Origin: Candidatus Krumholzibacteriia bacterium
GTDB lineage: Bacteria > Krumholzibacteriota > Krumholzibacteriia > WVZY01
Assembly: GCA_036478295.1 (NCBI GenBank)
Contig: JAZGDW010000012.1
Location: forward strand, 1-20,117
Direction: 5' to 3'
Length of the DNA stretch: 20,117 nucleotides
Of this stretch, positions 5,675 through 20,117 are shown in pieces; the first letter of the stretch is position 1; every line of letters starts with the position of its first letter. Under the pieces are notes generated by a model. The model was not told the DNA's origin and did not search any database. It saw only the letters and a list, made by a program, of their open reading frames with translations. A program made the position numbers and the translations under genes.

Positions 5675-5974
5675 TCAGGTGGTCTCGTCGATCAGCTCGA
5701 CGAATCGCCCCCACGGGATCGCCGTCCAGGTCTCCGCCTCCAGGGCGCCGGACGACCGCGTGATCATCGACACCTTGGCGGCAACTTCCTCATTCGGCGC
5801 CTCGAAGATGTCCAGGAAATCGTGCGGTCCCAGCAACACATAGTGCGAGATCCACTTCACCTCCGGGCACTTCTTCGCCACCTCTTTCATCCACTTTTTG
5901 CCGATTTTTTCGCGGTGCTTGAGGTCGCTCATTACCTCGGGCGTCAGTTTGGTCAAGAGGATGTAAGTAGCCAT
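5675..5974 (-). CDS. GYD-domain protein (function unknown)
   Basis: 99 aa with MATYILLTKLT...HYVLLGPHDFLDIFEAPNEEVAAKVS...ETWTAIP, the typical GYD pattern. GAGGAGG RBS at ~5981-5987. Confidence 0.85.
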   Translation of the reverse strand: MATYILLTKLTPEVMSDLKHREKIGKKWMKEVAKKCPEVKWISHYVLLGPHDFLDIFEAPNEEVAAKVSMITRSSGALEAETWTAIPWGRFVELIDETT

Positions 5975-5993
5975 CGAAAACCTCCTCGTTCAA

Positions 5994-7052
5994 CTAGAGT
6001 GCCTGCGCCTTCCACCCGGCCGACCGGTGGCGCTCCCCGCCGTCACCGAGCATGAGGCACGCGCTTTGTGGCGTGGAGTCGATCAGCCGCAGCCCGTCTC
6101 CCGGGCCCATGACAAAGACGGCGGTAGCGAGCGCATCGGCCTGCATCACCGACCGCGCCGTGACAGTGACGCTTTTACTATAATGAGGGGAGCGGCCTGT
6201 GTGCGGGTCGACCAGGTGGTTGTAAACCTTTTCCCTGTCATAGTATATCTCATAACTTCCCGACGTGGCGACTGCGGCGGATGTCAGCCGCAGAACTTCC
6301 GGGTAGCGTCCCTTCTTTTCCGGATCTTCGACGGCCACGGTCCACGGCCGCCCGTCCGCCCGGCGACCGCGGGTACGGATATCACCGCCGGCATTGACAA
6401 GGTGATCGTCGATTCCCCGCGCGCTGAGAACCTGTGAAATCTGGTCGACGACATACCCCTTGGCAATGCCGTCCAACGTAATGCCCATACCACGAGTCGA
6501 GAACCGGATGTGCCCGTCCGCCATCTCTATTCCGTCCGAGCCCACCCGTGCGAGCGCGTCCCGGAGTTCGCCATCCGTCGGCATCGCCCCGCCCTGTCCC
6601 GGACTTTTCTCGAATAGATCGACCAGCGGTTTGACCGTGATGTCGAAGGCACCCCGGCTGGTGCGATGCAAATCGAGTGCCCGCTGCACGACTTCTACCA
6701 GCTCAGCGGGCGGCCGCCGAATAATGCCCTCACTATTAAGAACCGCCACCGGCGAAGCGGTGTCGTGACGACTGAGGATCGCGATGAGACGTTCCATTTC
6801 TTCGAACGCGCGGCCGATGGCCTCCTCGGCGTGATCGGCCGAGGCGTGCACGGCAGTAATGGTGACGTACGTGCCCATGGCGATACGGGATCGAGAGACG
6901 CGGACCCGGTCGCGGCCGACCCTCACGACTTCGAACAGCGCCTGCAGGGCTCCCCCGCCGGCCGCACCGATACCGAAGATCCCGCACGCTTTCAAGAAGC
7001 CCCTCCGGTCGAAGGCGCGCTCCGCCCATGGCCATAGTTTTCTTGTGATCAT
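5994..7052 (-). CDS. apbE: FAD:protein FMN transferase (ApbE family) with twin-arginine signal peptide
   Basis: Motifs AMGT, GAFDITVKPL, LDGIAKGYVVD, VNAGGD, VATSGSYE, HLVDPHTG and ADALATA. N-terminal FDRRGFLK plus hydrophobic stretch. The real start is ATG 7052 (TGATG overlap with the upstream gene), not 7961 as in the ORF track. Confidence 0.93.
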   Translation of the reverse strand: MITRKLWPWAERAFDRRGFLKACGIFGIGAAGGGALQALFEVVRVGRDRVRVSRSRIAMGTYVTITAVHASADHAEEAIGRAFEEMERLIAILSRHDTASPVAVLNSEGIIRRPPAELVEVVQRALDLHRTSRGAFDITVKPLVDLFEKSPGQGGAMPTDGELRDALARVGSDGIEMADGHIRFSTRGMGITLDGIAKGYVVDQISQVLSARGIDDHLVNAGGDIRTRGRRADGRPWTVAVEDPEKKGRYPEVLRLTSAAVATSGSYEIYYDREKVYNHLVDPHTGRSPHYSKSVTVTARSVMQADALATAVFVMGPGDGLRLIDSTPQSACLMLGDGGERHRSAGWKAQAL

Positions 7053-7303
7053 CAGGTTCCCCTCGGTTTTCCGCTCGAAATCAAGCGCTCGCCCTGTTCT
7101 TGCTTTTTTGTGGCTGTTTCCGGTGCGCGCTCCGGGTTGAAGCCGCAGTGGCACATACCGCCGGCGCCGCACATGCGGCACTGCAACACGTCCGAGCCGC
7201 TCGGGAGATCCGGCGATTGCCGCCGTACCAGTGCCTGCACGGCGACCCAACCGCCGGCGAGCGCCGCGATTGCCACCACGGCCACGAGCAAATGATACAA
7301 CAC
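7052..7303 (-). CDS. Small membrane-anchored Cys-rich protein (NqrM-like architecture)
   Basis: 83 aa with an N-terminal TM helix and CRMC..GGMCHC. It fills the gap between rnfA (3-nt spacing) and apbE (1-nt overlap). Confidence 0.7.
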   Translation of the reverse strand: MLYHLLVAVVAIAALAGGWVAVQALVRRQSPDLPSGSDVLQCRMCGAGGMCHCGFNPERAPETATKKQEQGERLISSGKPRGT

Positions 7304-7306
7304 GCG

Positions 7307-7888
7307 TCAGCCCCCCATTCCCGCAAACCCCATAAAGGCCATCGACAGTATACCGGCCAGCATGAGGGTCAGCGCCGCGCCTTTGACGACCGACGACACG
7401 TCGGCCAGCTCGAGCCGCTGCCGAAGTCCGGACATGAGCAGCAGGGCCAGGGTGAAACCCGCTCCCGCGCCGAGAGCGAAGCTCAGCGATTGTCCGAAAC
7501 TGTACTGCCGGTTGGTCTGAAATAGCGCCAGTCCCAGGATGGCGCAGTTGGTCGTAATCAGGGGCAGAAAAATCCCCAGTGCGCGGAAGAGCGCCGGGCT
7601 GAATTTCTTGATGAACATCTCTACCAGTTGGACCGCCGACGCGATCACGACGATGTACGAGATCAAGTGCAAGTACGGAGCGTCGATTGCCACCAGGGCA
7701 CGGTGGATGCCGAAAGCACAGATCGAGCTGACGAGCATCACAAAGGTGACCGCCGCGCCCATGCGAAGCGCCGTGTCGACCCTTCCCGAGACCCCGAGGA
7801 ACGGACAGATTCCCAAGAACATACTCAAGACGAAATTGTTGATCAGCGCCGCGTTGATAAATATCTGCAGGGATGAGACGTCGTTCAT
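7307..7888 (-). CDS. rnfA: Rnf electron transport complex subunit A
   Basis: NNFVLSMFLGICPFLGVS, IASAVQLVEM and LGIFLPLITTNCAILG. ATG 7888 overlaps the rnfE stop (ATGA). Confidence 0.95.
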   Translation of the reverse strand: MNDVSSLQIFINAALINNFVLSMFLGICPFLGVSGRVDTALRMGAAVTFVMLVSSICAFGIHRALVAIDAPYLHLISYIVVIASAVQLVEMFIKKFSPALFRALGIFLPLITTNCAILGLALFQTNRQYSFGQSLSFALGAGAGFTLALLLMSGLRQRLELADVSSVVKGAALTLMLAGILSMAFMGFAGMGG

Positions 7889-8511
7889 GTCCGCTGCTCC
7901 TTTCGCTCGCGGAGCCAGTTGAAGAGCAGCAGCCATGCCCCCAGGACGAAGAACGCTCCACCGGGCAGGATCATGATGATCCACGGTTCGAACTCCGCGC
8001 CGAAAACGGGCAGCCCGGCGATGGTACCGTTGCCGAGCAGCTCCCGTACCAGGCCCAGGCACAAACAGGCGATGGTGAAGCCCACCCCTATCCCCAGGGC
8101 GTCGAGCATCGACTTGCCCACGCTGTTCTTCGAAGCGAACGCCTCCGCTCTCCCGAGGATCACGCAGTTGACGACGATGAGCGAAATAAACGCTCCCAGA
8201 GCCTTGTGTATATCGAGGCTGATTGCCTGGATGAGGTACTCGACGACGGTGACGAAGGTGGCGATGATGAGAATAAACGAGGCGATGCGCACCTGTTTGG
8301 GAATCCAGTGTCGCACGAGCGATACAATGGTGCTCGACATGAACAGCACGAAGGTCGTGGCGGCACCCATGGCCACGGCGTTAACGACCGAGTTGGTCAC
8401 CGCGAGCACCGGGCACATTCCCAGCAGCATGACGAAGACAGGATTGTCCCGCCACAGTCCTTTCAACAACACGTCCATGTTGGGCGCGGCGGGCGCGCCG
8501 GTTTGCGCCAT
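7885..8511 (-). CDS. rnfE: Rnf electron transport complex subunit E
   Basis: GLWRDNPVFVMLLGMCPVLAVT, LIVVNCVILGRAEAFASKN, RELLGNG and ILPGGAF. ATG 8511 overlaps the rnfG stop (TAATG). Confidence 0.95.
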   Translation of the reverse strand: MAQTGAPAAPNMDVLLKGLWRDNPVFVMLLGMCPVLAVTNSVVNAVAMGAATTFVLFMSSTIVSLVRHWIPKQVRIASFILIIATFVTVVEYLIQAISLDIHKALGAFISLIVVNCVILGRAEAFASKNSVGKSMLDALGIGVGFTIACLCLGLVRELLGNGTIAGLPVFGAEFEPWIIMILPGGAFFVLGAWLLLFNWLRERKEQRT

Positions 8512-9224
8512 TATTGCGTCCCCTCTTGCAGAATCTCCAGGTTGCCCTCGATGACGGGCACTGATTTCGCCGTGCTTTCCCGCAGTATGTTGGCGATGGC
8601 CCGGGAAGAAATTGTGGCACCCGTAATGGCCTCGACCTGCCACGGCTCGGTCTTCTTGCCGTGCTTGACCATTTCGATGGGGTGGAACACTCGAGTTTTC
8701 TCCTCATCGAGCGTCACGTCGAGCGTTTCGAAATTCGCCCGGAAGTCGGGATCGGTCTCGATCTTGTCGCCGAGCCCGGGGGTTTCCTTGCTTTCGAGCA
8801 CCTTGAGCCCGACGACACCGTGCTTGCGGGGGGAGTACCCGTAGAGCACCCTCAGCACGTCCTGAAAACCCTGCCCCTGTGCCTCCAGGGCGACGCCCAC
8901 CAGCCGCCGGTCCGCGTCGTAGCACGCGTAATACTTGATCGCCCGCTCGTCCTCGCCCTCGAGCAGTTGCAGACTCGTGCCGACCAGTTTGAACGCCGCT
9001 TTCGTCTGTGCACCGGGCACCACTTCGAAGATGGCGCGCTCCAGGGCGATCGCCTTGTTGCGTTTGATGGTCGGAAACGTCCACTGAAACGTGAGCACGA
9101 TGAGTATGCCGGACAGCAAACCGATTCCACCCATGGTGAGTATCATGCGCATGCTGTTCGCCCCGTCGGCCCCCGAAGCGGGCGGCGGCGTGGTCGGCGT
9201 TATGGGAGGTGTCGGGCCGTTCAT
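8511..9224 (-). CDS. rnfG: Rnf electron transport complex subunit G (FMN-binding)
   Basis: N-terminal TM, ETPGLGDKI and flavinylation motif AITGATISS. ATG 9224 overlaps the rnfD stop (ATGA). Confidence 0.92.
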   Translation of the reverse strand: MNGPTPPITPTTPPPASGADGANSMRMILTMGGIGLLSGILIVLTFQWTFPTIKRNKAIALERAIFEVVPGAQTKAAFKLVGTSLQLLEGEDERAIKYYACYDADRRLVGVALEAQGQGFQDVLRVLYGYSPRKHGVVGLKVLESKETPGLGDKIETDPDFRANFETLDVTLDEEKTRVFHPIEMVKHGKKTEPWQVEAITGATISSRAIANILRESTAKSVPVIEGNLEILQEGTQ

Positions 9225-10252
9225 GCGCCCGCCTTCCCTGTCCTGCCCGTGCCGTACACGCGCGGCTGGGTCAAGCGGTCGATGAGCGGTGTAAGCGCGT
9301 TCATCAGCAGGATCGCATACATCACTCCTTCGGGCATCCCCCCGAACTGGCGGATGACGATAACGAGCAGGCCGGTGCCGATGGCAAATACCCAGCATCC
9401 CTTCGGCGTGACCGGTGAGGTAACCGGGTCGGTGGCCATGAACACGGCGCCGAGCATCAGCCCACCGGCAAGCAGATGAAACTCACCGCTCGGGTATTTG
9501 GCGCCATCGATGGCGTGCAGTATGGTGGCGAAGACAAAGACCGAGCCGAAGATCCCAATCGGTATGCGCCAGTTCAGAAATCGCCGCCAGGCGAGATACG
9601 CCCCACCCAGCAGGATGAGCAGCGCGCTGGTTTCACCAAGAGATCCCGCGGTCGAGCCGAGGAACAGGTCCGACAAAGCGGTGGGCACAGCGTCGAACTT
9701 CATATTGGCCAGCGGTGTTGCCGAACTCACCGCGTCGAAATGCGGGCGCGTGAATGGCAGCGCCAGGTTGTCACCTCTCAGCTCGAAGAAACCGCCGAGG
9801 TTGGCGTGCTCGTGCCATGTGGTGAGCGCCACCGGAAAGGATGCCTGCAGAAAGGCACGGCCGGTGAGCGACGGGTTGAAAACGTTGTGTCCCAGGCCGC
9901 CAAAGAGGATTTTGCCGACGACGATTGCGACCACCGCGCCGAGAAACGCCATCCACAGCGGCAGGCCCGGCGGAAGCGTCAACGCCAGCAACACAGCGGT
10001 CACAATCGCGCTGCCGTCCGCAATGGAACTGGCCCTGGCCGGGCCTTTTCCCCCGAGCGCCCACTCCGCCAGCAAGGCCCCGGCGATGCAGACCAGCGTG
10101 ACCAGGAGCGCGCTCAGGCCGAAAAAATAAATCGACGCGAGTACAACCGGCACCAGGCTGTAAATAACCTGCCGCATGATGGCCGGCGTGTCGTACTGCC
10201 GCTTCACAAAAGGCGAAGCTGACAGGACAAGATGCGGCATCTTGGCCTTCAT
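9221..10252 (-). CDS. rnfD: Rnf electron transport complex subunit D
   Basis: DGSAIVTAVLLALTLP, FGGLGHNVFNP, DAVSSATPL (FMN-Thr), GSLGETS and FMATDPVTSP. ATG 10252 overlaps the rnfC stop (ATGA). Confidence 0.95.
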   Translation of the reverse strand: MKAKMPHLVLSASPFVKRQYDTPAIMRQVIYSLVPVVLASIYFFGLSALLVTLVCIAGALLAEWALGGKGPARASSIADGSAIVTAVLLALTLPPGLPLWMAFLGAVVAIVVGKILFGGLGHNVFNPSLTGRAFLQASFPVALTTWHEHANLGGFFELRGDNLALPFTRPHFDAVSSATPLANMKFDAVPTALSDLFLGSTAGSLGETSALLILLGGAYLAWRRFLNWRIPIGIFGSVFVFATILHAIDGAKYPSGEFHLLAGGLMLGAVFMATDPVTSPVTPKGCWVFAIGTGLLVIVIRQFGGMPEGVMYAILLMNALTPLIDRLTQPRVYGTGRTGKAGA

Positions 10253-11580
10253 TGCGCCATCGCTTTCTGGCGCGCCTGCTCCTCGCGCAGCATTCCCTTC
10301 GCCACCCGGAAACGCTGGACCAGCGGAATATTGGAAGGACAAACGTACGAACAGGATCCGCACTCCATACAGTCCATAAGATTGAACTCGAGCATTTCCT
10401 CGTAGTGACCGACCCGCGCCAGCATCCCCAGACGACTGGGATTGAGAAAAACCGGACACACGTCCAGGCAGCTCGAGCAACTGATGCATGCATACTCGCG
10501 GCGCGGCCGTACTTCAGCATCGGTGAGACAAAGAATGCCCGAGGTGCCTTTCATCACCGGCACCTCGAGATTCTGCTGGGGAGTCCCCATCATCGGACCG
10601 CCAAACAGAATCTGTCGCGCGTTTTCACGAAGCCCGCCGCAGTAGTCGAGTACTTCGGCCAGCTTCACTCCGACGGGAATCAAAAGCGTCGACGGATTGT
10701 GAATTCCAGGCCCGGTCACTGTCACCACGCGCTCGATCAATGGTTGACCCCACGCGAAAAGATCACCGATACCGGCGACGGTGCCGACGTTCTGGATGAG
10801 AACCTGGGCGTCGATCGGCAGCTTGCCGCTCGGTACCTCCCGCTTCAAGACCGCGGTGACCAGCATTTTCTCCGCGCCCTGGGGATACTTGGTCTCGAGC
10901 GGAATGATGTCACACGGCAGGTCGTCTGGCACCTGCTCGCGCAGTGATTTGATAGCGTCCCATTTGTTGGTCTCCACACCGATGAACGTTTTCTCGGCGC
11001 CGAGAATCCTGTGGATGATCCGGATACCGAGAAAAAGCGGCTCGGCGTATTCCAGCATGATGCGGTGGTCGCTGGTCAGGTAGGGTTCGCACTCGCAGCC
11101 GTTGACCAGAAAGAACTGGACCCGCTTGCCTTGCGGCACCGTGAGTTTGACGTGGGTGGGAAAAGCGGCTCCGCCCTGCCCCACGAATCCGCCCTGCTGG
11201 ACGGTCGCGAGCAGCTCCTCGACGGGCGCGTTTTCCCAATCGCGCCGGCCGCCGTCGTACAACGTTTGGGGGGAATGGGGATCACTGGCGATCACGATGG
11301 ACTCGACCAGACGCCCGGAGGGGTGGTGACGCTTCTCGATCGCTGTCACCTTGCCCGTGACCGACGCGTGCAGGGGGACGGAGACGAACCCGACCGCCTC
11401 CGCGACGAGCTGCCCGCGGTAGACTTTTTCGCCAACCGTCACAACCGGTTTGGACGGCGCTCCGAGATGCTGGCTCAAGGGCAGGATCACCTCATCGGGC
11501 ACCGGCAGCCGCTCGATGAGCCTGTCTGCCGTCAGCGATTTATGATCCTCCGGGTGTACTCCGTGGCGAAACGTCCTCAT
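10249..11580 (-). CDS. rnfC: Rnf electron transport complex subunit C (short form)
   Basis: GVHP, QHLGAP, GFVGQGGAAFPTHVK, NGCECEPYLTSD, KYPQGAEK, GGPMMG, CISCSSCLDVCP and CMECGSCSYVCPS. Confidence 0.95.
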   Translation of the reverse strand: MRTFRHGVHPEDHKSLTADRLIERLPVPDEVILPLSQHLGAPSKPVVTVGEKVYRGQLVAEAVGFVSVPLHASVTGKVTAIEKRHHPSGRLVESIVIASDPHSPQTLYDGGRRDWENAPVEELLATVQQGGFVGQGGAAFPTHVKLTVPQGKRVQFFLVNGCECEPYLTSDHRIMLEYAEPLFLGIRIIHRILGAEKTFIGVETNKWDAIKSLREQVPDDLPCDIIPLETKYPQGAEKMLVTAVLKREVPSGKLPIDAQVLIQNVGTVAGIGDLFAWGQPLIERVVTVTGPGIHNPSTLLIPVGVKLAEVLDYCGGLRENARQILFGGPMMGTPQQNLEVPVMKGTSGILCLTDAEVRPRREYACISCSSCLDVCPVFLNPSRLGMLARVGHYEEMLEFNLMDCMECGSCSYVCPSNIPLVQRFRVAKGMLREEQARQKAMAQ

Positions 11581-14500
11581 CGTCCTGTTGCTCCCCGTTG
11601 CGGTTCGATTTCTCCTGCATCACGAATTCACGCAGTGACTGTTTGAAAAACTCGGGATCGCGTCCGTAGCCGCAGAGCCATAGCAGCCGCTCGGTCAACT
11701 TGTCGTAGGTCGAGCGGTCCTGCTGCGGGGTCCGCTCCGGCTCCGGGCGCCCGGTGTCCGCCACCTCGCCCACTGCCACCTTGGTGGACGCCGCCTCGCC
11801 CGCCGGCACCTCGGTGGACGCCGCGGCCAGCCGCTGCAGGCGCCTCCAGGCGCTGCGCCTTTCCTCCACCGCTCGGACCAGCTCGGGGGAAACGACGGCC
11901 AGCCGATGACGCTGTTTATGATCGCTCACGTCGATATACGGTTGCAGACCTTCACGCGCGTCCGCCTCCAGGTCCAGGTACCGTGACAAGGTCACTGTAT
12001 TGTCGCTCAGGTACCCCTTCGAAATCACTTTGAAATGTTTATGAAACCGCATCTCGCCCACCGCCCAATCGGCCGCCGTCACCGGTACCGTGATAACGGA
12101 GACCGATCCCGACGTTTCGCTGACGGTCAAGTCGATCGAGCTCCAATCCCGATCCGGGTCCGGATTCTCGTGGAGCGTGATCCGTTGTTCATCGGGGTCG
12201 CGCTCGAAAAGCGGAAACACGCGGCTGCGGAACGCGAGGTCCGCTTGCTCTGCCGTCTTTTCAGGCGCGATACCGTGTGCCGGCGCATCCGGCGCATAGA
12301 TGTGAAACAGCGCCGGGCGGGGCCGGGCGACCCCGTCACACACGCCACGAATCAGGTGTCCCGGATGTCCGACGCTGGCCTGCAGGACGAATGCCTCCCC
12401 ACACCCCAGCGCCCGCTCGGCAAGATCGCTCTTGCCACCACCGACCGCACGGTTGCCATAACCTGCGGTTGCCGGGGACGCGGCGCCCGGCTCTTGCACG
12501 GCGCTTGTCTCCGGCACGGTCAGCCCCTCGGTGTTGACGACCACAACCTTGATCGGGTAGGGCCCCGACAGAAGATCCGAGATGTCGTCGAAGCCCGTGC
12601 TCTCCGATTGGCAGAGGACCAGTACCACCGGCATGAGCTGACGCTCTTCGTCGGCAAAATCCTTCCAGTCGAACTTTGCAAAAAGAGAATCGTGCTCGGC
12701 GGGCACGTAGGAGTCGCTGAGCTCGAGGTCCGCACGGCGGCACACGGCGATTTCTTTCGCGAGCCTGCGCGCGATACTCTCGAATACTCCCTCGGCGAGG
12801 GCGGGCGCGTCGCCGGGACGATGACTCACCCACGGGTGCGCGTGGGGATTACTCGGGTAGGTCCCACTCCACATCGATGCCACCGCGGCGTCGATCGTCA
12901 TGACCATTGACGCACGACCGTCGCCCACGGCTCCCTGCAGGTAGAGACGGCGCTGTTCCTGCAGGTCGGTCAGAAGATCACTAAGGCGTTTCATCTGCGC
13001 GGCATCGATGTCGGCGGCACCCTCCTCGGCACCGATCATGTCCGAAAGTGACTCGGCGGTGAGAGATTCCGCGCCGAGCCGCCGCAGTTGCCGGCCGAAC
13101 GCATCGAAATCATTTATCTTGACGGCGCCCGACACCTCGCCCTGGATTTTGTCTTCGATACCTTTGATCAACCGCGTGAGCCGATCGATGTGGTTCCGGA
13201 AACGGGGCCGCATCACCGATTCGACGGCGGCCGTTACCAGGTGCACGGCGGTTTTCACACTGTTACCGGGGTACGCTCCGTCCCCGCCAACGAGTGAATG
13301 GTAGGCGGCCTTGTCGAGCAACCTGTAGACCTCGGTGTCCGGTTCGTCCGGCGACACGTATTGCTCCGGCCGACCGGCCGGCAGGTCCGGGAGTTTCATC
13401 AAAAACTGCCAGTTGCGTTGGTAGGGTTCCAGCTCACCTGCCGTTCCAGCCGTCCACTCGAACGCATTTTCGGGGCACACTTCCACGCACAGGCGGCATC
13501 CCTTGCAGCTGAGCGGATTGATGGCTATGGAAAGCACCTCACCGCTGCCCTTTTCTCTCTTGTGCGGCCCGTTAAAAAAGGTCTCTGTCCGGATCACCGG
13601 AAAATGTTCGACGATGGACCGTACCTGTTGAAACTCTGCGCTCAACGGTGCGAGCTTGTCGGCGGGCAGATCCATACGCTTTACCAATTGTGAAAAGGCT
13701 TCGTCGAGCAGCGGTCCAAAGGACAAATACCGTTTCAAGTCATCCTTGCTCACCAGGCGATACGCCATTTTGGCGAGCTGGGCGCCCACACGTTGCATCT
13801 GGATCATTGCGGTACCGCCCTCTCCACAAACGGTGACCGCCGTGTCAATGACGGCGTCGATGCTGCGGACGGTCGCGGGCAGCGCCGAGTCCGGACAGTG
13901 CGCCCAACACAGTCCGCAACCCGTACAGTTCTCTGCCAGAAGGCGGGGAATACCCAGGCGGTACGCCGCCATATTCCGATAGGCACTACTGCGCGCGGGA
14001 ATAATACCGCTGGCCACGTACGGATCGGTCAGAGCCCGGTCCACCTGACCGGTGTCGTAGAGGTAACCTACCGAATGCCAGAACCGGGTGGCATCGAATA
14101 CGGTCCCATCGCCGGGATCGAGGTCACGAACCGTCCACGGGGCGTCCGGCTCCCCGCCGGTTCGGGCGTCGCCGGCAGGGCGGTCGAGCTCGACCACTTC
14201 TCTACCGCCACCGCGGATCGCGTTCGTAATGTCACCGACCAGAAAATGCCCAGCGCCAAAGACACGTTGCAGCCGGATCTCCAGATCCTCGACGATACGA
14301 ACGACCGCGTGCGGGGGCGCGCCCGGCAGTGTCGCGAGATAGGCGCCGAGCAGGGCCCAGACGGCGAGCTGGTCGACGAACGACGGCTGTGATGCGGCGT
14401 CTGACGCAATCTTGCGCGCGTCGACCGCGTAAACACGGAGGTCGTGGCCGCGGACCCAATCAATGTTTCGCGCCGACAGCCTGGACCAGAGCGTTTCCGG

Positions 14501-16270
14501 TCTCCGGTTGGTCTCCACGACCAGCGTGCCGCCTTTCTTGAGGGCGGCGTGTGAAGGCAGGGCGTCGAGCAGTTTGTCTCCGGACACGAGAACCGTATCC
14601 ACGACATCGGGGGCGTGCTTGAAAACGTCGTCGCCGTCGGTATGGCACAGGGAGAAGGATACCGGCTGCAGGTCCGGCGCCAGACCGCCGCTCGGGAAGG
14701 TCCTTACCCTCCACTCGAGTGCGGTGCTCAGCGACCGCGCGAACAGATTGCCCGCGAACAAACCACCCTGCCCCGAGAGCGAATAGAGTTTCACCGACCG
14801 CCCGGCGGGCAGCGGCGCCTCGACGCCCTCACAGGCAGCGAGTGACAAATCGTCCAGGTGCGGGTAATCCTTGCGGATTCTCTGCTGCTGCGTCTGCAGG
14901 TGTGGAAAATCCCTCGTCTCCGGGTCGAAACCGATACCCGCATAGAAGAGTTTCTTCGCCGTCCCGGCCGGCCGCATGTTCCTGAAAACCGCAACCAGTT
15001 CGGCGAACGACGGCGCGTCACCACCGGTCGCGCACACGCCGGAGAGAACGCGAGGATGTTCATCGAGGCGGCGGTAGGTTTCGTACGCCGGGTAGTCGGG
15101 AGGATCTCCGTTCCGACGGCCGTTCTCGACCGCCTTGTCGATTGCAGACCGCACTTCCCTCACCGCGGGGAGATCTTCCGCCAGCGGCTGGTCGGTACGC
15201 TCCAGCACCGTCACGACCTTCTTGCCTTTGAGCATTCGTGTCAGCTGCGGACCGGGGAACGGCCGGTAGACGCTCAACCCTATGACACCGGCTTTCAGCT
15301 TTTCCTCGGCACGCATGTAGTCCGCGACCACCTCCAGTTCTTCCACCAGCGCGCCCTGGGCGATGACAACAACCTCGGCGTCGTCAGTACGGTAGCCGGT
15401 CACCTTGTTGTAGACGCGGCCGGTCAACCGACCGAACTCGCTCATGGCCTCGTCGACCACAGCGTCCAGGTGTTCGGCAAAGAAAGGACGCTGTGCGGCA
15501 AGCGCTTTGAAATAGCTATCGTGATCCTGTACCCCACCGATACCGGCGGGGTGGTCGCGGTCGATGAGCAGCGGGATTCTCCGGCGCCGCTCGCCGAAGA
15601 GCATCACCTGCGCCGGCGTCGGTGCCGGGATAAGGTCATCGGGGTGACCCAGGTAAGCCTGCACAAGTTCGTATTCCGGCAGCCTGATGTTCTGCACCGA
15701 ATGGGCGGTTCGGTACATATCCTGCGCGCAGATTCCCGGGGTCAGCGACCGCTCTGCGATACGGTGCGCGATCAACGCAAAATCGGCGGCTTCCTGCGCG
15801 TTTCTTGCAAACAACTGGAAGAAACCGGCGGGCGCCGCCGCGTAATAATCATCGTGTCCGCCGTGAAGCGATCCCGCCTGCCGTGGCAGTGCCCGGCAGG
15901 TAAGATGAACGACACACGGCAGTCTCTTTCCCGCGACTGCATGCAGCGTCCCCGGATTCTCATCCAGGCTTCCGGTCAACATACAGGTACGGAGCCCGCC
16001 CAGTGCGTAGCCCACCATCACCCTCGCCAGCGGTTGCGTTCGCGGGATCTCACGGATCAGTGCCGGCTTTCGTGCGGCGACCTCATCGCTCCGTGGCGTG
16101 AGATTGCCGAGCGGCCCGGTGATTTCGCTCAGGTCCGGACCGGCCTGCAGGAGAATCACTTCCCCGGCAGTAATTTCCACGGCATAGACGGCGCCGAGGC
16201 CGTCGAGCGCTTGCTCCTCTCCGGGAAACGGATATGTTCTTGCCGCGGCTGTTTTCTTTGCAGTCCACAT
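11540..16270 (-). CDS. Fused pyruvate:ferredoxin oxidoreductase (PFOR/NifJ)-like protein with degenerate catalytic and TPP motifs
   Basis: PFOR-like segments appear in order: VHLTCRAL..HGGHDD, QEAADFALIAH, YRPFP..VTVLERTDQP, a gamma-like domain (YAVDARKIA), CTGCGLCWAHCP (13892-13927), CKGCRLCVEVCP (13472-13507) and a C-terminal beta-like domain (PALFHIYAP, SRVFPLF). Canonical YPITP, GACxGC, TGC and GDG..N motifs are not recognisable at the expected positions. Confidence 0.85.
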   Translation of the reverse strand: MWTAKKTAAARTYPFPGEEQALDGLGAVYAVEITAGEVILLQAGPDLSEITGPLGNLTPRSDEVAARKPALIREIPRTQPLARVMVGYALGGLRTCMLTGSLDENPGTLHAVAGKRLPCVVHLTCRALPRQAGSLHGGHDDYYAAAPAGFFQLFARNAQEAADFALIAHRIAERSLTPGICAQDMYRTAHSVQNIRLPEYELVQAYLGHPDDLIPAPTPAQVMLFGERRRRIPLLIDRDHPAGIGGVQDHDSYFKALAAQRPFFAEHLDAVVDEAMSEFGRLTGRVYNKVTGYRTDDAEVVVIAQGALVEELEVVADYMRAEEKLKAGVIGLSVYRPFPGPQLTRMLKGKKVVTVLERTDQPLAEDLPAVREVRSAIDKAVENGRRNGDPPDYPAYETYRRLDEHPRVLSGVCATGGDAPSFAELVAVFRNMRPAGTAKKLFYAGIGFDPETRDFPHLQTQQQRIRKDYPHLDDLSLAACEGVEAPLPAGRSVKLYSLSGQGGLFAGNLFARSLSTALEWRVRTFPSGGLAPDLQPVSFSLCHTDGDDVFKHAPDVVDTVLVSGDKLLDALPSHAALKKGGTLVVETNRRPETLWSRLSARNIDWVRGHDLRVYAVDARKIASDAASQPSFVDQLAVWALLGAYLATLPGAPPHAVVRIVEDLEIRLQRVFGAGHFLVGDITNAIRGGGREVVELDRPAGDARTGGEPDAPWTVRDLDPGDGTVFDATRFWHSVGYLYDTGQVDRALTDPYVASGIIPARSSAYRNMAAYRLGIPRLLAENCTGCGLCWAHCPDSALPATVRSIDAVIDTAVTVCGEGGTAMIQMQRVGAQLAKMAYRLVSKDDLKRYLSFGPLLDEAFSQLVKRMDLPADKLAPLSAEFQQVRSIVEHFPVIRTETFFNGPHKREKGSGEVLSIAINPLSCKGCRLCVEVCPENAFEWTAGTAGELEPYQRNWQFLMKLPDLPAGRPEQYVSPDEPDTEVYRLLDKAAYHSLVGGDGAYPGNSVKTAVHLVTAAVESVMRPRFRNHIDRLTRLIKGIEDKIQGEVSGAVKINDFDAFGRQLRRLGAESLTAESLSDMIGAEEGAADIDAAQMKRLSDLLTDLQEQRRLYLQGAVGDGRASMVMTIDAAVASMWSGTYPSNPHAHPWVSHRPGDAPALAEGVFESIARRLAKEIAVCRRADLELSDSYVPAEHDSLFAKFDWKDFADEERQLMPVVLVLCQSESTGFDDISDLLSGPYPIKVVVVNTEGLTVPETSAVQEPGAASPATAGYGNRAVGGGKSDLAERALGCGEAFVLQASVGHPGHLIRGVCDGVARPRPALFHIYAPDAPAHGIAPEKTAEQADLAFRSRVFPLFERDPDEQRITLHENPDPDRDWSSIDLTVSETSGSVSVITVPVTAADWAVGEMRFHKHFKVISKGYLSDNTVTLSRYLDLEADAREGLQPYIDVSDHKQRHRLAVVSPELVRAVEERRSAWRRLQRLAAASTEVPAGEAASTKVAVGEVADTGRPEPERTPQQDRSTYDKLTERLLWLCGYGRDPEFFKQSLREFVMQEKSNRNGEQQDDEDVSPRSTPGGS
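11753..11824. repeat. ~2.4 copies of a 30-bp tandem repeat in the C-terminal linker of the PFOR-like protein
   Basis: Units start GGTG(T/G)(C/A)CGCC at 11753, 11783 and 11813, encoding AASTEVPAGE-AASTKVAVGE-VADT. Confidence 0.7.
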
Positions 16271-16271
16271 G

Positions 16272-17123
16272 TCACCACTTGCCCGCGTTCAATGCCTGGT
16301 GCGGCGCTTCCGCATTCTCAAACTGACCTTTCTCAACCCAGGTGATAGCACCCGTGGGGCAACGCACGATGGCGTCCGGAGTCTGCAGATCGATCAGATC
16401 CCTGTTCAACACCGGCAGGTTTCGTTTCATCCTCAGTAGACCCGCGGGGGCATCGGCCACACACTTGCCGCACGCCGTACACCCAACCTTGCAGAGCTCG
16501 AGCATGTCATCCCCCTCCAGTTCCGACTTGCATTGCACCAACAGGGTTTGCCTGAGGGGAAGAATCTCGAACAGGCCCTTGGGACATATCCTGACGCAGT
16601 CCCCGCACGACGTGCATTTTTCTACGTCCACGATGGGCAGGCCCGTGGAGCTCATCACGATAGCGTCGAAGTCGCAGACGACCTCACAGTCGCCAAAGCC
16701 CATGCATCCGTAACGGCACCCCTTGTTGCCGCCGGTAACGGCGGCCGCCGAACGGCACGTCTCGTGTCCCTCGTATTCCCCCATCTGAATGGCGACGTCG
16801 GTTCCGCCGGCGCAGAGCAGGCGGGCCGTTGTTTCCTCCATCTCCCCCGCGTCGACACCCAGGTAGCCGGCGATGATCGCCGCACCGTCCACACCACCCA
16901 CCGGGCACCCGCTCGGCTGAACCTCGCCGGCGACGGCTTTCTCCGCGAACGCGCGACAGCCGGGGAGCCCGCAAGCACCGCAGTTCGATCCGGGCAACAT
17001 ATCGGCGACCTCATCGATCCGCGGGTCCTCGAACACCTTCAGCCGGCTATGGGCGATTGCCAGCACGACGGCCAGCGCGCTCGCCAGACCCAGCAGAAAG
17101 CCAATGGCGCTTAGCGTTTCCAT
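16272..17123 (-). CDS. rnfB: Rnf electron transport complex subunit B (polyferredoxin)
   Basis: N-terminal TM, VFEDPRI..LPGSNCGACGLPGC..CPVGG, CRYGCMGFGDCEVVC, CTSCGDCVRICP and CKVGCTACGKC..CPTGAI. Confidence 0.93.
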   Translation of the reverse strand: METLSAIGFLLGLASALAVVLAIAHSRLKVFEDPRIDEVADMLPGSNCGACGLPGCRAFAEKAVAGEVQPSGCPVGGVDGAAIIAGYLGVDAGEMEETTARLLCAGGTDVAIQMGEYEGHETCRSAAAVTGGNKGCRYGCMGFGDCEVVCDFDAIVMSSTGLPIVDVEKCTSCGDCVRICPKGLFEILPLRQTLLVQCKSELEGDDMLELCKVGCTACGKCVADAPAGLLRMKRNLPVLNRDLIDLQTPDAIVRCPTGAITWVEKGQFENAEAPHQALNAGKW

Positions 17124-17133
17124 CGATGATCCT

Positions 17134-19665
17134 TTAAAGATACCGCGCGGCCCGTTTCAACAGGTCGTCCAGGTCCGATTCATCTGCGTTCTTCGGCTTG
17201 CCGGGGTGGATGATGTTCACGGGACATTTCTCAGCCGCGACGACCAGGTCACGGTAGGAGCCGGCGAGCGGATCCTTGATGTAAGCCTGCTTGTTGTCGT
17301 TGTACGCGAACATCTGCCCGTTGAGGTCTGTGCAGTCATTGCACGTCGTGCAGAGGGGGGTATCGATATACGGGTCGTCGAACGAGAGCGATTCTTCTTC
17401 CTCTTCTTCTTCCGCCTCGGTTTTCTTCTCTTGAGATTCGGCCGGCGCCGCCGGTGCGGGGGCTTCCACTGCCGGTGGGGGCGGCGGTGCTGCAAAAGTA
17501 ACCTTGGATATGTCGCCCCCTTCAACCAGCAGTTGGGCGGCGATTCGCTGGACGATCTCGCGGGTCAGTTCTTCGATGTCGCGGTCCAGTTCGACGCGGT
17601 ATTTCTCTTCGATGGCGTCAACCTCGCGCTGCTTGTCTTCTTCCAGCCGCTGTTTCTCCTGGAACAGCGCATTCTCCGCAAAGGAGTTGTGGATGCCGCC
17701 CGACTCTTGCAAATGACGCCAGGACGACATGCATCGCAATACCGACATCAGGACCGCGCGAGTAATAATCGCCCGGCCCAACCGTCCCTTGCCGTCTACT
17801 GTCGTGAGATATGGTACTTTGCCCCCGCTGACTTCGGGATCCAGCCGCAGGTACTCGCCGAGCGGAACCATGTCCGGGTGCCATTTGGGCGCCGGCACGT
17901 GCCAGAAATGACGACCGAGCCGGGTGTCGCACAACAGCAAGTCCGCAGCGGTCATCGGTAGCTCTGCGGTGATTTCGTCACCTTCATTCGTCCGGTACGT
18001 AAAAGCCTCCACGGGCCAGTCGCGGTCGAGTTGTGGGTTATCGCCGATATCGATACGCTCCCGAAGCGTATCTCCGCGTCCCGGGTCGAAGGTAAACGCT
18101 GGGAACACACGCGACTCCAGCGCAGCGGCGCTGTTGAGGTACACGGGCAGGCCCGGATGATGGTCCGGCGTGCCGGTGTAGACGCTGAAAAGCGCCGGTC
18201 CCGAGTAACGGAGCCCTTCGAGAAAACTGTCATGCAACAGCGACACTTGCGACACCGGCGACTGCATTACGTACACATGGCTCATGGCCATCGTCATATT
18301 GGCCAGATGAGTCGGCCAACCCGGCATGACCGACGGTTCCTCAATGTCGCCGCAGACATCCTCGACCTTGGCAAGGATCTTGATCGGCAGACCTTCGGTC
18401 AGTATATCGAGCAGCGTTCGGATACCCGCCGCGCTAAAAAAGTCTCCGTCGAGCACGAGGATTACGGGCGGACACAGTGCCAGCTCATCCTCGGCGAGGT
18501 GTGTCGCGTCGAAACGAGAGAAAAAGGGGTCGTGCAACGCCTCGCGGTAGTGGTTTTCGGTCTCCAGCCGCGCGATGCGGATGGCCCTGAAAAAACGCAC
18601 CATGATCTGCATGCGCTCGTGGTAGGTGCCCACCGCCACGGCGCTGTCGTTGGAGATCGGCGAGAGATCGAACGGCAGTTTCGTGCCCTTCGCCGGGGCT
18701 TCATCGAACAGCGGTTTGACATCGAGAATCGTGGCGAGAATTTCCTGAAGGCGGTTGCGGCGCTTCTCCGGCAACGTGTTGCCAAGCTCGCTCGCGCTCA
18801 AGATGCCGGACAGCACGTTCGCGTCGACATCGTCACCGGCGCCCTCCCCCACCGACGCGCGCAGGTGGTCGGGATTACGGCCCTCCGGAGAACGGTCAAA
18901 ATCCGCCTGCAAGATATCCTGCAGGTGCTGGGTCAGCGACGCGAGTTCCTCACGCCATCCATCACATGCGCCCCTCCAGTGGAACTCGCGAACGGCTTCG
19001 ATGAGTCTTTCGGGTGTTCGCGTCCCGCACGCAATGACGTCGCCGTCCCGGTGAAGCACCCCCCGCGCCGCGGACAGGCTTTGCTGCACCCGTTCTTTTT
19101 CTTCCGGCGAGACGATGGACTCCAGCAACTCTCCGGAAGCGCGCTGCCAGAGTTCCCCAAGCGTCACGCCGTCGCTGTCGTCTGCCAGGGCTCTGATCGT
19201 GGATTCTAACCGGTGGACGTGGCCCTCGACACGTGCACCCTCGTCGCCCTCGCCGCCAATCTCGGCCACCACTTCATCGATGATGCTGGATAGCGAACGG
19301 GCCGCCGCGTCCGGGTCACCGGCGACCAAGCAGGCCGGGTAGCCGTACCGTACGCGCAACAGATCCCGGTGCAGGTACAACAAGGCGGGCATGGGTCCTG
19401 CGGCGGGCGTCGGCGGTAGTGCCTGCGGCCCACGGTGCCCGTAGAGGTGAAACTCCATCAACTCGACAAAGGTGCGCGTGGCGTCGTAGCCACCGGCTCC
19501 CTCATCGTCCCACACGTGCGCTGCTTCAACCGGCAGATCATCCGCCCCGGTCATGCCGGCAGTCGGCGGTGCCTCTCTCCGGTCGGCGTCGCCGGCTTGC
19601 GAGATGTCTTTGCCGAGATCGGACTGGCCGCCGTCAGCGGGTTCGGGATCCTTCACCGTTTCCAC
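17134..19665 (-). CDS. Protein with degenerate PFOR C-terminal (beta-like) domain, coiled coil, Pro/Ala/Glu linker and C-terminal single-cluster ferredoxin
   Basis: GPALFSVY, ESRVFPAFTFDP, NPQLDRDWP and WRHLQE parallel the C-terminal part of the 1576-aa protein. The terminal domain has YIDTPLCTTCNDC...AAEKCP. GTG 19665 is chosen as start because GAGGAGG lies at 19672-19678; the ORF track start is 19701. Confidence 0.8.
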   Translation of the reverse strand: METVKDPEPADGGQSDLGKDISQAGDADRREAPPTAGMTGADDLPVEAAHVWDDEGAGGYDATRTFVELMEFHLYGHRGPQALPPTPAAGPMPALLYLHRDLLRVRYGYPACLVAGDPDAAARSLSSIIDEVVAEIGGEGDEGARVEGHVHRLESTIRALADDSDGVTLGELWQRASGELLESIVSPEEKERVQQSLSAARGVLHRDGDVIACGTRTPERLIEAVREFHWRGACDGWREELASLTQHLQDILQADFDRSPEGRNPDHLRASVGEGAGDDVDANVLSGILSASELGNTLPEKRRNRLQEILATILDVKPLFDEAPAKGTKLPFDLSPISNDSAVAVGTYHERMQIMVRFFRAIRIARLETENHYREALHDPFFSRFDATHLAEDELALCPPVILVLDGDFFSAAGIRTLLDILTEGLPIKILAKVEDVCGDIEEPSVMPGWPTHLANMTMAMSHVYVMQSPVSQVSLLHDSFLEGLRYSGPALFSVYTGTPDHHPGLPVYLNSAAALESRVFPAFTFDPGRGDTLRERIDIGDNPQLDRDWPVEAFTYRTNEGDEITAELPMTAADLLLCDTRLGRHFWHVPAPKWHPDMVPLGEYLRLDPEVSGGKVPYLTTVDGKGRLGRAIITRAVLMSVLRCMSSWRHLQESGGIHNSFAENALFQEKQRLEEDKQREVDAIEEKYRVELDRDIEELTREIVQRIAAQLLVEGGDISKVTFAAPPPPPAVEAPAPAAPAESQEKKTEAEEEEEEESLSFDDPYIDTPLCTTCNDCTDLNGQMFAYNDNKQAYIKDPLAGSYRDLVVAAEKCPVNIIHPGKPKNADESDLDDLLKRAARYL

Positions 19666-20117
19666 CGCTCGCCTCCTCGGATGCTCTGGGAAAGATCCCA
19701 AATCTGTCGAAAGCCTGTTCGAGCACGGCCTGCCTGTCTTCTATGCCGGACACACGCCGTGACCTTCTGATATGTTCGTAGCGCTCGACGTCCTGGTTTC
19801 TGTACAGAATCCCGACCGGTACCCGATCCGTTAATCCGGCGACCTCGCGGGCGCGATTGAGATCGGACGGGTCATGTACTTCCTGCGTCTTGTAAACACG
19901 GGCCGTTGCCTCGCTGATCTGCATGCCGTTTTCGTGTTTTAACACCAAAACGTTGTCTGGATTCGATAGCAGGTTTTCGAAGATACCCGGCATAAAATGC
20001 GGGCATCTCTGCAAAATCCGGATAAAGGAGAATCCCTTGTGATGAAACGCCTGCTTGATGATGTCGTACAACAGTTCAGGCATCCACTCGCATACCTGCG
20101 CGACAAACGACACGTTG
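19634..20117 (-). CDS. C-terminal part of a 2-oxoacid:ferredoxin oxidoreductase beta (TPP-binding) subunit, truncated by the window edge
   Basis: SFVAQ...IIKQAFHHKGFSFIRILQRCP and PVGILYR match the KorB/PorB-type C-terminus, with the cluster-ligating CP retained. The frame is open to the window end. Confidence 0.7.
   Translation of the reverse strand, partial: NVSFVAQVCEWMPELLYDIIKQAFHHKGFSFIRILQRCPHFMPGIFENLLSNPDNVLVLKHENGMQISEATARVYKTQEVHDPSDLNRAREVAGLTDRVPVGILYRNQDVERYEHIRRSRRVSGIEDRQAVLEQAFDRFGIFPRASEEASGGNGEGSRTR

Follow-up and report, generated by a model that had tools for sequence, protein, structure and literature searches.

The window analyzed here is one whole contig of 20,117 nt (JAZGDW010000012.1) from a 3.5-Mb, 91% complete assembly of a Candidatus Krumholzibacteriia bacterium. 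The nearest homologues that bear a name are labeled Ca. Krumholzibacteriia or Latescibacterota. It carries an operon for the Rnf complex together with genes related to 2-oxoacid:ferredoxin oxidoreductases (OFORs), and it breaks off inside the first of these, korB. An earlier note on this DNA had described at least 12 co-oriented genes with junctions that overlap or span no more than 19 nt, among them a 4.7-kb gene resembling pyruvate:ferredoxin oxidoreductase (PFOR) between rnfB and rnfC. Pfam and NCBIfam backed the gene identities, and both the arrangement and the order were confirmed: 12 genes, all on the minus strand, run from position 20117 down to 5675 as korB, PFL2, rnfB, PFL1, rnfC, rnfD, rnfG, rnfE, rnfA, a gene for an 83-aa membrane protein, apbE, and a GYD-domain gene. 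The junctions, in the same order, measure -32, +10, +1, -41, -4, -4, -1, -4, +3, -1, and +19 nt. PFL1 and PFL2 are our labels for the two PFOR-like genes that flank rnfB. The features are as follows.

19634..20117, minus strand: 3' half of korB, beta subunit of a two-subunit 2-oxoacid:ferredoxin oxidoreductase (PF12367; final cluster cysteine in QRCP)
17134..19665, minus strand: PFL2, 843 aa, GTG start inferred, predicted dead PFOR paralogue with a C-terminal ferredoxin (AlphaFold, profile match, Foldseek)
17137..17385, minus strand: tethered single-cluster ferredoxin domain of PFL2, CTTCNDC...C (PF13370, 27.1 bits against a cutoff of 24.5)
16272..17123, minus strand: rnfB, 283 aa, a subunit of the polyferredoxin type whose N terminus holds a membrane helix (TIGR01944, above cutoff)
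11540..16270, minus strand: PFL1, 1576 aa, predicted dead full-length PFOR paralogue (POR_N, PFOR_II, POR, and Fer4 domains)
10249..11580, minus strand: rnfC, 443 aa (TIGR01945, 520 bits)
9221..10252, minus strand: rnfD, 343 aa, flavinylation-type motif SSATP (TIGR01946; 7zc6_D)
8511..9224, minus strand: rnfG, 237 aa, flavinylation-type motif TGATISS (TIGR01947, 91.8 bits against a cutoff of 102; FMN_bind)
7885..8511, minus strand: rnfE, 208 aa, both [2Fe-2S] cysteine motifs (TIGR01948)
7307..7888, minus strand: rnfA, 193 aa, both [2Fe-2S] cysteine motifs (TIGR01943)
7052..7303, minus strand: 83-aa protein, one membrane helix and a CxxC-x4-6-C motif (15 homologues aligned)
5994..7052, minus strand: apbE flavin transferase, 352 aa, twin-arginine-like RRGFL (PF02424)
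5675..5974, minus strand: GYD-domain protein, 99 aa (PF08734)

PFL1 is predicted to have the fold of a one-subunit PFOR. It is collinear with the Moorella (6cin) and Desulfovibrio enzymes over five stretches, in the domain order I-II-III-IV-V-VI and with large helical insertions, and it scores 173 bits with TIGR02176 against a cutoff of 911. Numbering the motifs on the intact NifJ of a relative (1408 bits to 6cin), we found that domain I has QAGPD in place of YPITP and threonine in place of the catalytic glutamate. In domain VI, GACxGC has become GAYPGN, NATGC has become IDAAV, GGDGW has become CQSES, and DTETYSN has become NTEGLTV, with loss of the YSN asparagine. Two domain V [4Fe-4S] motifs, at aa 782-792 and 922-932, are intact, and a conserved helix closes the chain (aa 1522-1535). 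The same pattern holds across 37 near-complete sequences, taken from 36 loci and the window. All eight domain V cysteines are kept in 37/37, and each proximal-cluster cysteine (the CxxC pair, whose columns were scored by local alignment, the NATGC cysteine, and the last cysteine) is kept in 0/37, as is the YSN asparagine of the thiamine pyrophosphate (TPP)/Mg motif. The YPITP column holds threonine in 2/37 and the catalytic column glutamate in 1/37, as read from a fast alignment in which the N-terminal columns are rough. As controls, all four NifJ-type PFORs examined keep YPITP, the glutamate, CxxC, and NATGC, and three of the four also keep the GDG region.

PFL2 is built differently. It has no domains I to III. 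A degenerate domain IV/V that has lost its cysteines is followed by a domain VI fold with neither TPP nor cluster ligands, then by a long helix, a predicted flexible acidic linker, and a ferredoxin. It is 23% identical to the C-terminal half of PFL1; a profile comparison matched the two over 370 columns with a probability of 100 and aligned their tail helices with each other. The AlphaFold model, made from 129 sequences, has a predicted local distance difference test score (pLDDT) of 90 and comprises a helical N-terminal part, a domain VI-like core, and a 54-residue helix (661-714), with low confidence in the linker at 717-724 and 741-757. Foldseek returned Moorella PFOR chains as the best matches to this model, at low whole-chain template modeling (TM) scores of 0.15 to 0.19, and matched the tail to ferredoxin I (1fxr; TM 0.85 by target). 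The C terminus thus combines the CxxCxxC...C motif of a single-cluster ferredoxin (Fer4_13) with a ferredoxin fold, and its four cysteines are invariant in the 129 aligned sequences. The C-terminal motif was present in 50 of 50 PFL2 sequences; in the same set the patterns YPxT, CxxCxxCxxxC, GACxGC, NxTGC, and DxxxYSNTG matched none and GGDG matched one. The linker is about 45 residues long; among 46 sequences it is 62% alanine, proline, glutamate, or serine, with a net acidity of about 9. Longer forms of PFL2 (1190 to 1565 aa) retain degenerate N-terminal domains.

On this evidence, PFL1 and PFL2 are almost certainly pseudoenzymes. The earlier note had taken both neighbors of rnfB for PFOR derivatives that keep only Fe-S motifs. 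The derivation and the lost catalytic motifs hold for both proteins, but PFL1 keeps more than was claimed, namely the five collinear stretches and a domain I arginine. Both genes are under purifying selection: against a same-genus relative, dN/dS is about 0.23 for PFL1 and 0.21 for PFL2, compared with 0.19 for apbE and 0.04 to 0.11 for four Rnf genes, all approximate values with dS near 1.1. A search of a 50%-identity library with PFL2 matched 905 clusters at an E value of 1e-30 or better, a count that includes paralogues. It is very improbable that either protein has remained an enzyme and merely changed its chemistry, or that the genes are decaying remnants. PFL1 does keep the PFOR architecture, and sister giants at the same position (see below) are intact, but the TPP, Mg, and proximal-cluster ligands have all been lost family-wide; decay is refuted by the conservation of the family, with open frames, dN/dS near 0.2, and hundreds of clusters. 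The prediction that automated annotation would mislabel such proteins came true for PFL2, whose homologues are labeled "ferredoxin," "coiled-coil protein SlyX/ferredoxin," or "hypothetical." PFL1 will be mistaken for an active PFOR, so that metabolic models of these genomes will wrongly gain pyruvate:ferredoxin activity.

The earlier note had also placed an active OFOR at and beyond the right edge of the window. We found the missing part on another contig of the same genome, C196 (locus L128), at the end of which stand genes for a MarR regulator and a 76-aa ferredoxin, a complete korA, and about 158 codons from the start of korB; the window picks up near korB residue 177, after a gap of about 50 bases. 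The contig ends share no overlap, so that the join into one split operon is inferred from position and from relatives with korA-korB-PFL2 on one contig. KorA on C196 carries PAEI, YPITP, and QRGGPSTG, and the N-terminal half of KorB carries WCPGCG, SGIGCASR, GDGD, and NxxYGLTK. Across C196 and the window, the catalytic motifs of a two-subunit OFOR are therefore complete (YPITP and QRGGPSTG in alpha; WCxGCG, SGIGC, GDGD, NxxYGLT, and QRCP in beta), and on this point the earlier note is supported: the upstream OFOR is intact. Across the family, YPITP is kept in 47 of 48 KorA sequences, and WCxGCG, SGxGCxxR, and GDGD are kept in 54 of 54 KorB sequences. The solved chain closest to KorA is that of the Magnetococcus 2-oxoglutarate:ferredoxin oxidoreductase (OGOR; 6n2n), with which it shares the PAEI loop and the QRGG arginine; within domain III, KorA carries an additional helical insertion. 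The SGIGCxxR arginine of KorB aligns with 6n2n_B. We presume the roles of these three elements, that of the last being 2-oxoglutarate binding. From these sequence features, the substrate of KorAB is probably 2-oxoglutarate.

The MarR protein on C196 (L128:970-1897, together with the 76-aa ferredoxin, CLGDKQC...CP, directly upstream of korA) has a cysteine-rich C-terminal tail and is possibly a redox-sensing regulator of the operon. A second, canonical korAB with intact motifs lies elsewhere in this genome (contig C155, L041:1897-4579), and no PFL or Rnf genes were seen beside it. Contig C216 of the same genome encodes a 1580-aa single-chain oxidoreductase (L040:6634-11376) in the permuted order ferredoxin, TPP-binding, POR, POR_N, PFOR_II. 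The motif patterns matched only its two ferredoxin motifs, and similar frames of 1593 to 1608 aa occur in G001, G011, and G012.

The arrangement recurs far beyond this genome. Patterns for the tethered ferredoxin matched 535 of 566 candidate stretches among GTDB contigs (one genome per species), and we studied the best 80 loci, which lean toward near relatives and some of which are probably from the same genomes as our sampled relatives. A single-protein PFL1 scan of the GTDB contigs gave no match; the alignment of the tethered ferredoxin did. PFL2 is present in 70 of the best 80 loci. Where the contigs allow the test, korB lies upstream of PFL2 in 47/49 loci, rnfB is the next gene in 54/64, and PFL1 follows rnfB in 47/47. 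In 31 of 34 loci rnfC begins within 700 nt beyond PFL1, and the remaining three have it further on. Given the counts of 47/49, 54/64, and 47/47, the gene arrangement is not due to chance. Record titles among the best 80 name Calditrichota, Rhodothermales, Bacteroidota, Gemmatimonadota, Planctomycetota, and Myxococcales, as well as alpha-, beta-, and gammaproteobacteria; the order korA-korB-PFL2-rnfB-PFL1-rnfCDGEA is thus conserved across phyla, as the earlier note needed it to be, and not unique to this genome. The bacterium's own phylum is patchy: 25 of 201 genomes match, nine of them with a single weaker match, and the ones inspected hold stand-alone intact giants. In two complete chromosomes, as assembled, an apparent rearrangement interrupts the operon, within rnfC in G011 and within PFL1 in G012, and the rest of it lies elsewhere (L021:9616-10290 and L036/L046). 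Another locus (L071:514-11119) reads korA, a gene for a 708-aa protein (KorB-like at its start, with a match to KorA as well), korB, PFL2, rnfB; a divergent NuoE/NuoF-like gene adjoins it, and about 4 kb of inserted genes displace PFL1.

The two pseudoenzymes belong to different modules. Next to the genes of this KorAB subfamily, on the downstream side, PFL2 or its short counterpart is found in nearly every case. Among 41 sampled genomes, 16 have a strong PFL1 match and all 16 have RnfC; three more have RnfC without a strong PFL1. In four loci (L111:2552-10246, L115, L116:2442-10252, and L127) an NfnAB-like pair precedes korA-korB-PFL2 and rnf is missing; their hosts are proteobacteria and one unclassified genome, counted elsewhere in our analysis as four proteobacterial loci. 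The top PDB matches of the L116 pair are the Nfn structures 5jca and 4ylf, and RnfD and PFL1 found no match in these four genomes as assembled. The variant may be a soluble form of the same machine that works by electron bifurcation. The variant without PFL1, a genome in which the two halves lie apart (see below), and the 16/16 co-occurrence together indicate that PFL2 belongs with KorAB and PFL1 with Rnf. Since Nfn and Rnf are both ferredoxin:NAD(P) oxidoreductases, the electron sink appears interchangeable while the tethered ferredoxin stays constant.

A sister architecture, which we call T2, suggests where the pair came from. It reads korA-korB-X340-rnfB-giant-rnfC where the contig reaches, and it occurs in 10 of the best 80 loci and in Gemmatirosa; the hosts are Gemmatimonadota, one Planctomycetota locus, and Gemmatirosa. 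X340 (about 340 aa) is a domain VI remnant with the same tail helix as PFL1. The T2 giant itself carries the ferredoxin and keeps YPITP, GACxGC, NxTGC, GGDG, and DTQVYSNTG; among seven near-complete giants, the proximal CxxC is present in all seven and YPITP in six. On a Persicobacter plasmid (L038:16605-28631), an intact giant PFOR with a tethered ferredoxin is followed by rnfCDGEA and then rnfB, and korB had no match within this 41-kb locus. Stand-alone intact giant PFORs with no tethered-ferredoxin match and no Rnf nearby (L129:7260-12641, L130:8092-12945, and L035:1179-5810) are likely the ancestral form of PFL1 and PFL2. We built a FastTree from 100 sequences and 336 columns covering the domain VI region; two PFL/outgroup segments shorter than 230 aa were left out, and fixed segments took the place of the short NifJ extracts. 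PFL1 and PFL2 formed one clade (support, 1.0) nested among the intact giants. The likely origin of the pair is an intact giant PFOR that was duplicated and whose redox parts were then shared out among the two copies.

We propose that the dead paralogues form a scaffold whose predicted swinging-arm ferredoxin links KorAB to RnfB, and we put the probability of this at slightly better than even (about 0.55). According to the available parts of PMC13768988, two-subunit OFORs have no domain V and hold the proximal cluster only, and all OFOR structures dimerize; sections of a 2025 Rnf review (PMC12174285) state that RnfB, through its C-terminal domain, takes electrons from cytoplasmic ferredoxins. 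PFL2 would bind KorAB and give this enzyme without a domain V its own ferredoxin, on the 54-residue helix and the Ala/Pro/Glu linker of about 45 residues. The ferredoxin would then swing between the KorB cluster and its electron acceptor, which would be RnfB in this operon and Nfn in the proteobacterial one. That PFL2 with its ferredoxin is the dedicated partner and carrier of KorAB seems quite probable. PFL1 would pair with PFL2 through domain VI and the homologous C-terminal helices, like the two halves of a PFOR dimer. We consider it reasonably likely that PFL1 is the Rnf-side subunit of such a pseudo-dimer, its two clusters extending the RnfB wire or buffering electrons. More tentatively, and at odds that we would place short of even, KorAB, the two pseudoenzyme scaffolds, and Rnf may be one membrane-bound, ion-pumping 2-oxoglutarate:NAD+ oxidoreductase, found in hundreds of bacterial species, with a Kor module that can also dock to NfnAB.

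When oxygen is low, the net flow of electrons probably runs in the oxidative direction and gives the cell an energy-conserving option besides the SucAB dehydrogenase. Ion pumping through Rnf would be powered by the oxidation of a 2-oxoacid (probably 2-oxoglutarate) with NAD+ as the oxidant. A SucA match was found in 15 of the 16 PFL1 genomes; only this genome, at 91% completeness, is without one, and it has two heme-copper oxidase subunit I genes and the second canonical KorAB. We therefore rejected the idea that KorAB-Rnf replaces SucAB. The same wiring could run in reverse, so that Rnf would draw on NADH and an ion gradient to reduce the tethered ferredoxin, and carboxylation of succinyl-CoA or another acyl-CoA by KorAB would serve biosynthesis or redox balance. 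We regard this as unlikely. Parts of PMC12174285 describe Rnf as reversible, the two oxidases could supply the gradient, and the KorA structure closest to ours is a reverse tricarboxylic acid (TCA) cycle enzyme of Magnetococcus, but SucA points to an oxidative cycle and the loci examined showed no reverse TCA genes next to the operon. Nor did this genome match an ATP-citrate-lyase domain, in a search that shows little because it also matched no control genome.

Several observations weigh against the swinging-arm scaffold. Ten of the 64 testable PFL2 loci have no adjoining rnfB, and in at least one genome (G045) korAB-PFL2 and PFL1-rnfD are distant halves on different contigs. The 76-aa single-cluster ferredoxin gene lies directly upstream of korA here and in G001 and after rnfA in G014 and G025; with such a gene in or beside the operon in four genomes, free carriers are probably used too. 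The domain V clusters of PFL1, which sit beside a dead site, could be structural because they have no obvious electron source within their own chain. The substrate is uncertain as well, because the solved chain closest to KorB belongs to a Sulfolobus enzyme (5b46) of broad specificity. A SucA match in 15 of 16 PFL1 genomes means that closure of the TCA cycle does not depend on the system. Finally, the tree is a quick FastTree of fast-evolving sequences, open to long-branch attraction; it places one long-branch sister giant within the dead clade and lends little support to the separate subclades of PFL1 and PFL2.

Some of these points would also follow if the operon encoded two co-regulated but separate machines, which we judge a serious alternative, though a clearly less probable one. 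A soluble KorAB-PFL2 would meet Rnf or Nfn transiently, helped by free ferredoxin; PFL1 would be a structural or docking accessory of Rnf, and no stable supercomplex would form. Modules that come apart in some genomes, a Kor module that serves NfnAB without PFL1, the free ferredoxin genes, and an RnfB of the ordinary type that draws on cytoplasmic ferredoxins are what such a system would look like, but PFL1 then has little reason to follow rnfB in every testable locus, the genes are translationally coupled, and a transient system has no obvious need for a conserved domain VI and tail helix common to PFL1 and PFL2. Of the suggestion in the earlier note that the PFOR-like proteins couple an OFOR directly to Rnf, the intact OFOR and the conserved order are supported, a physical supercomplex is a hypothesis, and the 76-aa ferredoxin gene opposes the strict form, in which no free ferredoxin takes part. 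Its interpretation as a whole is partly supported, and the ferredoxin arm, the pairing with NfnAB, and the catalytically intact sister giant were absent from it.

We also considered whether PFL1 is mainly a regulator or an oxygen shield. It would then respond to a 2-oxoacid, to CoA, or to the state of its own clusters, and gate or protect Rnf and KorAB in hosts that switch between oxic and anoxic states. The domain I arginine that it keeps here and in nearer relatives (14/37 in the fast alignment) could serve such sensing, the hosts carry oxidases and SucA, and the MarR regulator with its cysteine-rich tail precedes the operon. This role is improbable, however: the arginine is missing in many PFL1 proteins, conservation is lowest in domain III (24% mean identity), and 1500 residues with two invariant clusters would be costly for a sensor. 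For PFL1 we continue to prefer the Rnf-side scaffold.

The Rnf genes themselves are complete. RnfA, RnfB, RnfC, RnfD, and RnfE score above their TIGR cutoffs, and RnfG falls below its cutoff with TIGR01947 as its best family. The cofactor motifs are present (SSATP in RnfD, TGATISS in RnfG, LGICP/TNCA and LGMCP/VNCV in RnfA and RnfE, and two CxxCxxCxxxC in RnfC); we take those of RnfD and RnfG to be flavinylation sites and those of RnfA and RnfE to hold [2Fe-2S] cysteines. The solved chains closest to RnfB are 9eri_B and 7zc6_B. The 83-aa protein recurs after rnfA and twice stands directly after PFL2 where rnf is missing. W19, C42, C45, and C51 are invariant in its 15 homologues; the label of a membrane protein with four cysteines, given to it from the letters alone, was thus one cysteine too many. 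NqrM is defined by one membrane helix and four conserved cysteines. Four members of the 83-aa family gave no match to the NqrM profile PF04400 at an E value of 10, nor did the genome at an E value of 1, and with three invariant cysteines, although the helix is present, membership in NqrM was rejected. Matches in the Atlas were hypothetical clusters only, with one lead, scored below 0.9, to FeoB-associated Cys-rich proteins. By analogy, the protein is a candidate functional counterpart of the NQR maturation factor: like NqrM (DUF539), it is a small membrane protein with a cysteine cluster, beside apbE and downstream of RnfA/E homologues, and unlike NqrM it has no profile match and three invariant cysteines. 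Parts of PMC12174285 place the NqrM gene next to apbE and downstream of RnfA/E homologues in nqr operons.

The GYD protein is probably a passenger. The earlier note counted it in the operon, and here it is present at a +19-nt junction; near other copies it is rare (G001 and L094 only), though many loci end before the region past rnfA. A plus-strand gene at 2892-5498 converges on the operon and seems unrelated; it encodes an 868-aa probable lipoprotein with three Ig-like Big_5 domains, one PKD domain, and a long glycine-rich tail. At 21-2381, on the minus strand, lies a 786-aa ClpA/ClpB-type AAA+ ATPase with a divergent N-terminal region. Scans for promoters (4 sites against 3.0 +/- 1.7 expected by chance) and terminators (18 against 11.6 +/- 4.2) gave nothing usable, and upstream of korA we found FNR-like boxes in only 3 of 46 loci and Rex and CRP boxes in none of the 46.

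Rnf is understood as taking its electrons from soluble ferredoxin. If the hard-wired input is real, the 2-oxoglutarate step of the citric acid cycle, where the drop to NAD+ is roughly 0.2 V, could serve facultative aerobes of many phyla as a site of ion pumping that keeps low-potential electrons away from oxygen. The system would do the work of the 2-oxoglutarate dehydrogenase complex in a form that conserves energy, and it would be a rare case of metabolic pseudoenzymes serving as subunits of a respiratory complex. Its intermediates would still be visible: the stand-alone intact giant, the intact giant with ferredoxin in an Rnf operon, and the two dead copies. Cultured carriers of the sister architecture (Gemmatirosa and Persicobacter) make the wiring idea directly testable.

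Full-text literature outside subscription journals and supplements yielded no description of the operon, of a PFOR pseudoenzyme in an rnf cluster, or of a tethered ferredoxin that serves Rnf. The available portions of PMC12337175, PMC6315080, PMC3534657, PMC5317091, and PMC9324843 do not describe the operon, and those of a 2026 PFOR review mention Rnf only as a ferredoxin-regenerating complex. The sole extra Rnf subunit named in the accessible sections of PMC12174285 is the small, cofactor-free RnfH, and parts of PMC6315080 propose another direct link, from Flx-Hdr to a four-subunit OGOR. The operon is real and conserved, an apparently undescribed Rnf variant with pseudoenzyme partners.

It resembles the Rnf complexes of known structure (9eri, 7zc6, and 8ahx, which we take, in part by assumption, to be from Acetobacterium woodii, Clostridium tetanomorphum, and Azotobacter vinelandii, respectively) in its six subunits, its flavinylation and [2Fe-2S] motifs, its polyferredoxin RnfB, and its order rnfB...CDGEA with apbE downstream. 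It differs from them in the 1576-aa pseudoenzyme gene that separates rnfB and rnfC and in the 2-oxoacid oxidoreductase that heads the operon. With the one-subunit PFOR/NifJ enzymes (Moorella 6cin, Desulfovibrio 1b0p; TIGR02176), PFL1 has in common domains I to VI and the domain V clusters and PFL2 the domain VI fold, but both are without YPITP, the catalytic glutamate, GDG...N, and the proximal-cluster cysteines, and PFL1 adds a C-terminal helix. KorAB matches the two-subunit OGOR/OFOR enzymes (Magnetococcus 6n2n, Sulfolobus 5b46; TIGR03710) in its III-I-II alpha subunit, its domain VI beta subunit, its catalytic motifs, and its missing domain V; here, unlike there, it adjoins PFL2 and has the insertion in domain III of KorA. 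T2 has the same gene order, a tethered ferredoxin, and the tail helix (on X340), but its giant is catalytically intact and carries the ferredoxin itself; as far as the literature was searched, it is uncharacterized. There is also a functional analogy with the 2-oxoacid dehydrogenase complexes, in which lipoyl arms move a carrier domain on an Ala/Pro/Glu-rich linker. In both systems a carrier on such a linker would stand between the enzyme and an NAD-reducing module, although there is no homology, and here an Fe-S ferredoxin would act as the carrier, a dead paralogue would provide the scaffold, and a membrane ion pump would be the NAD-reducing module.

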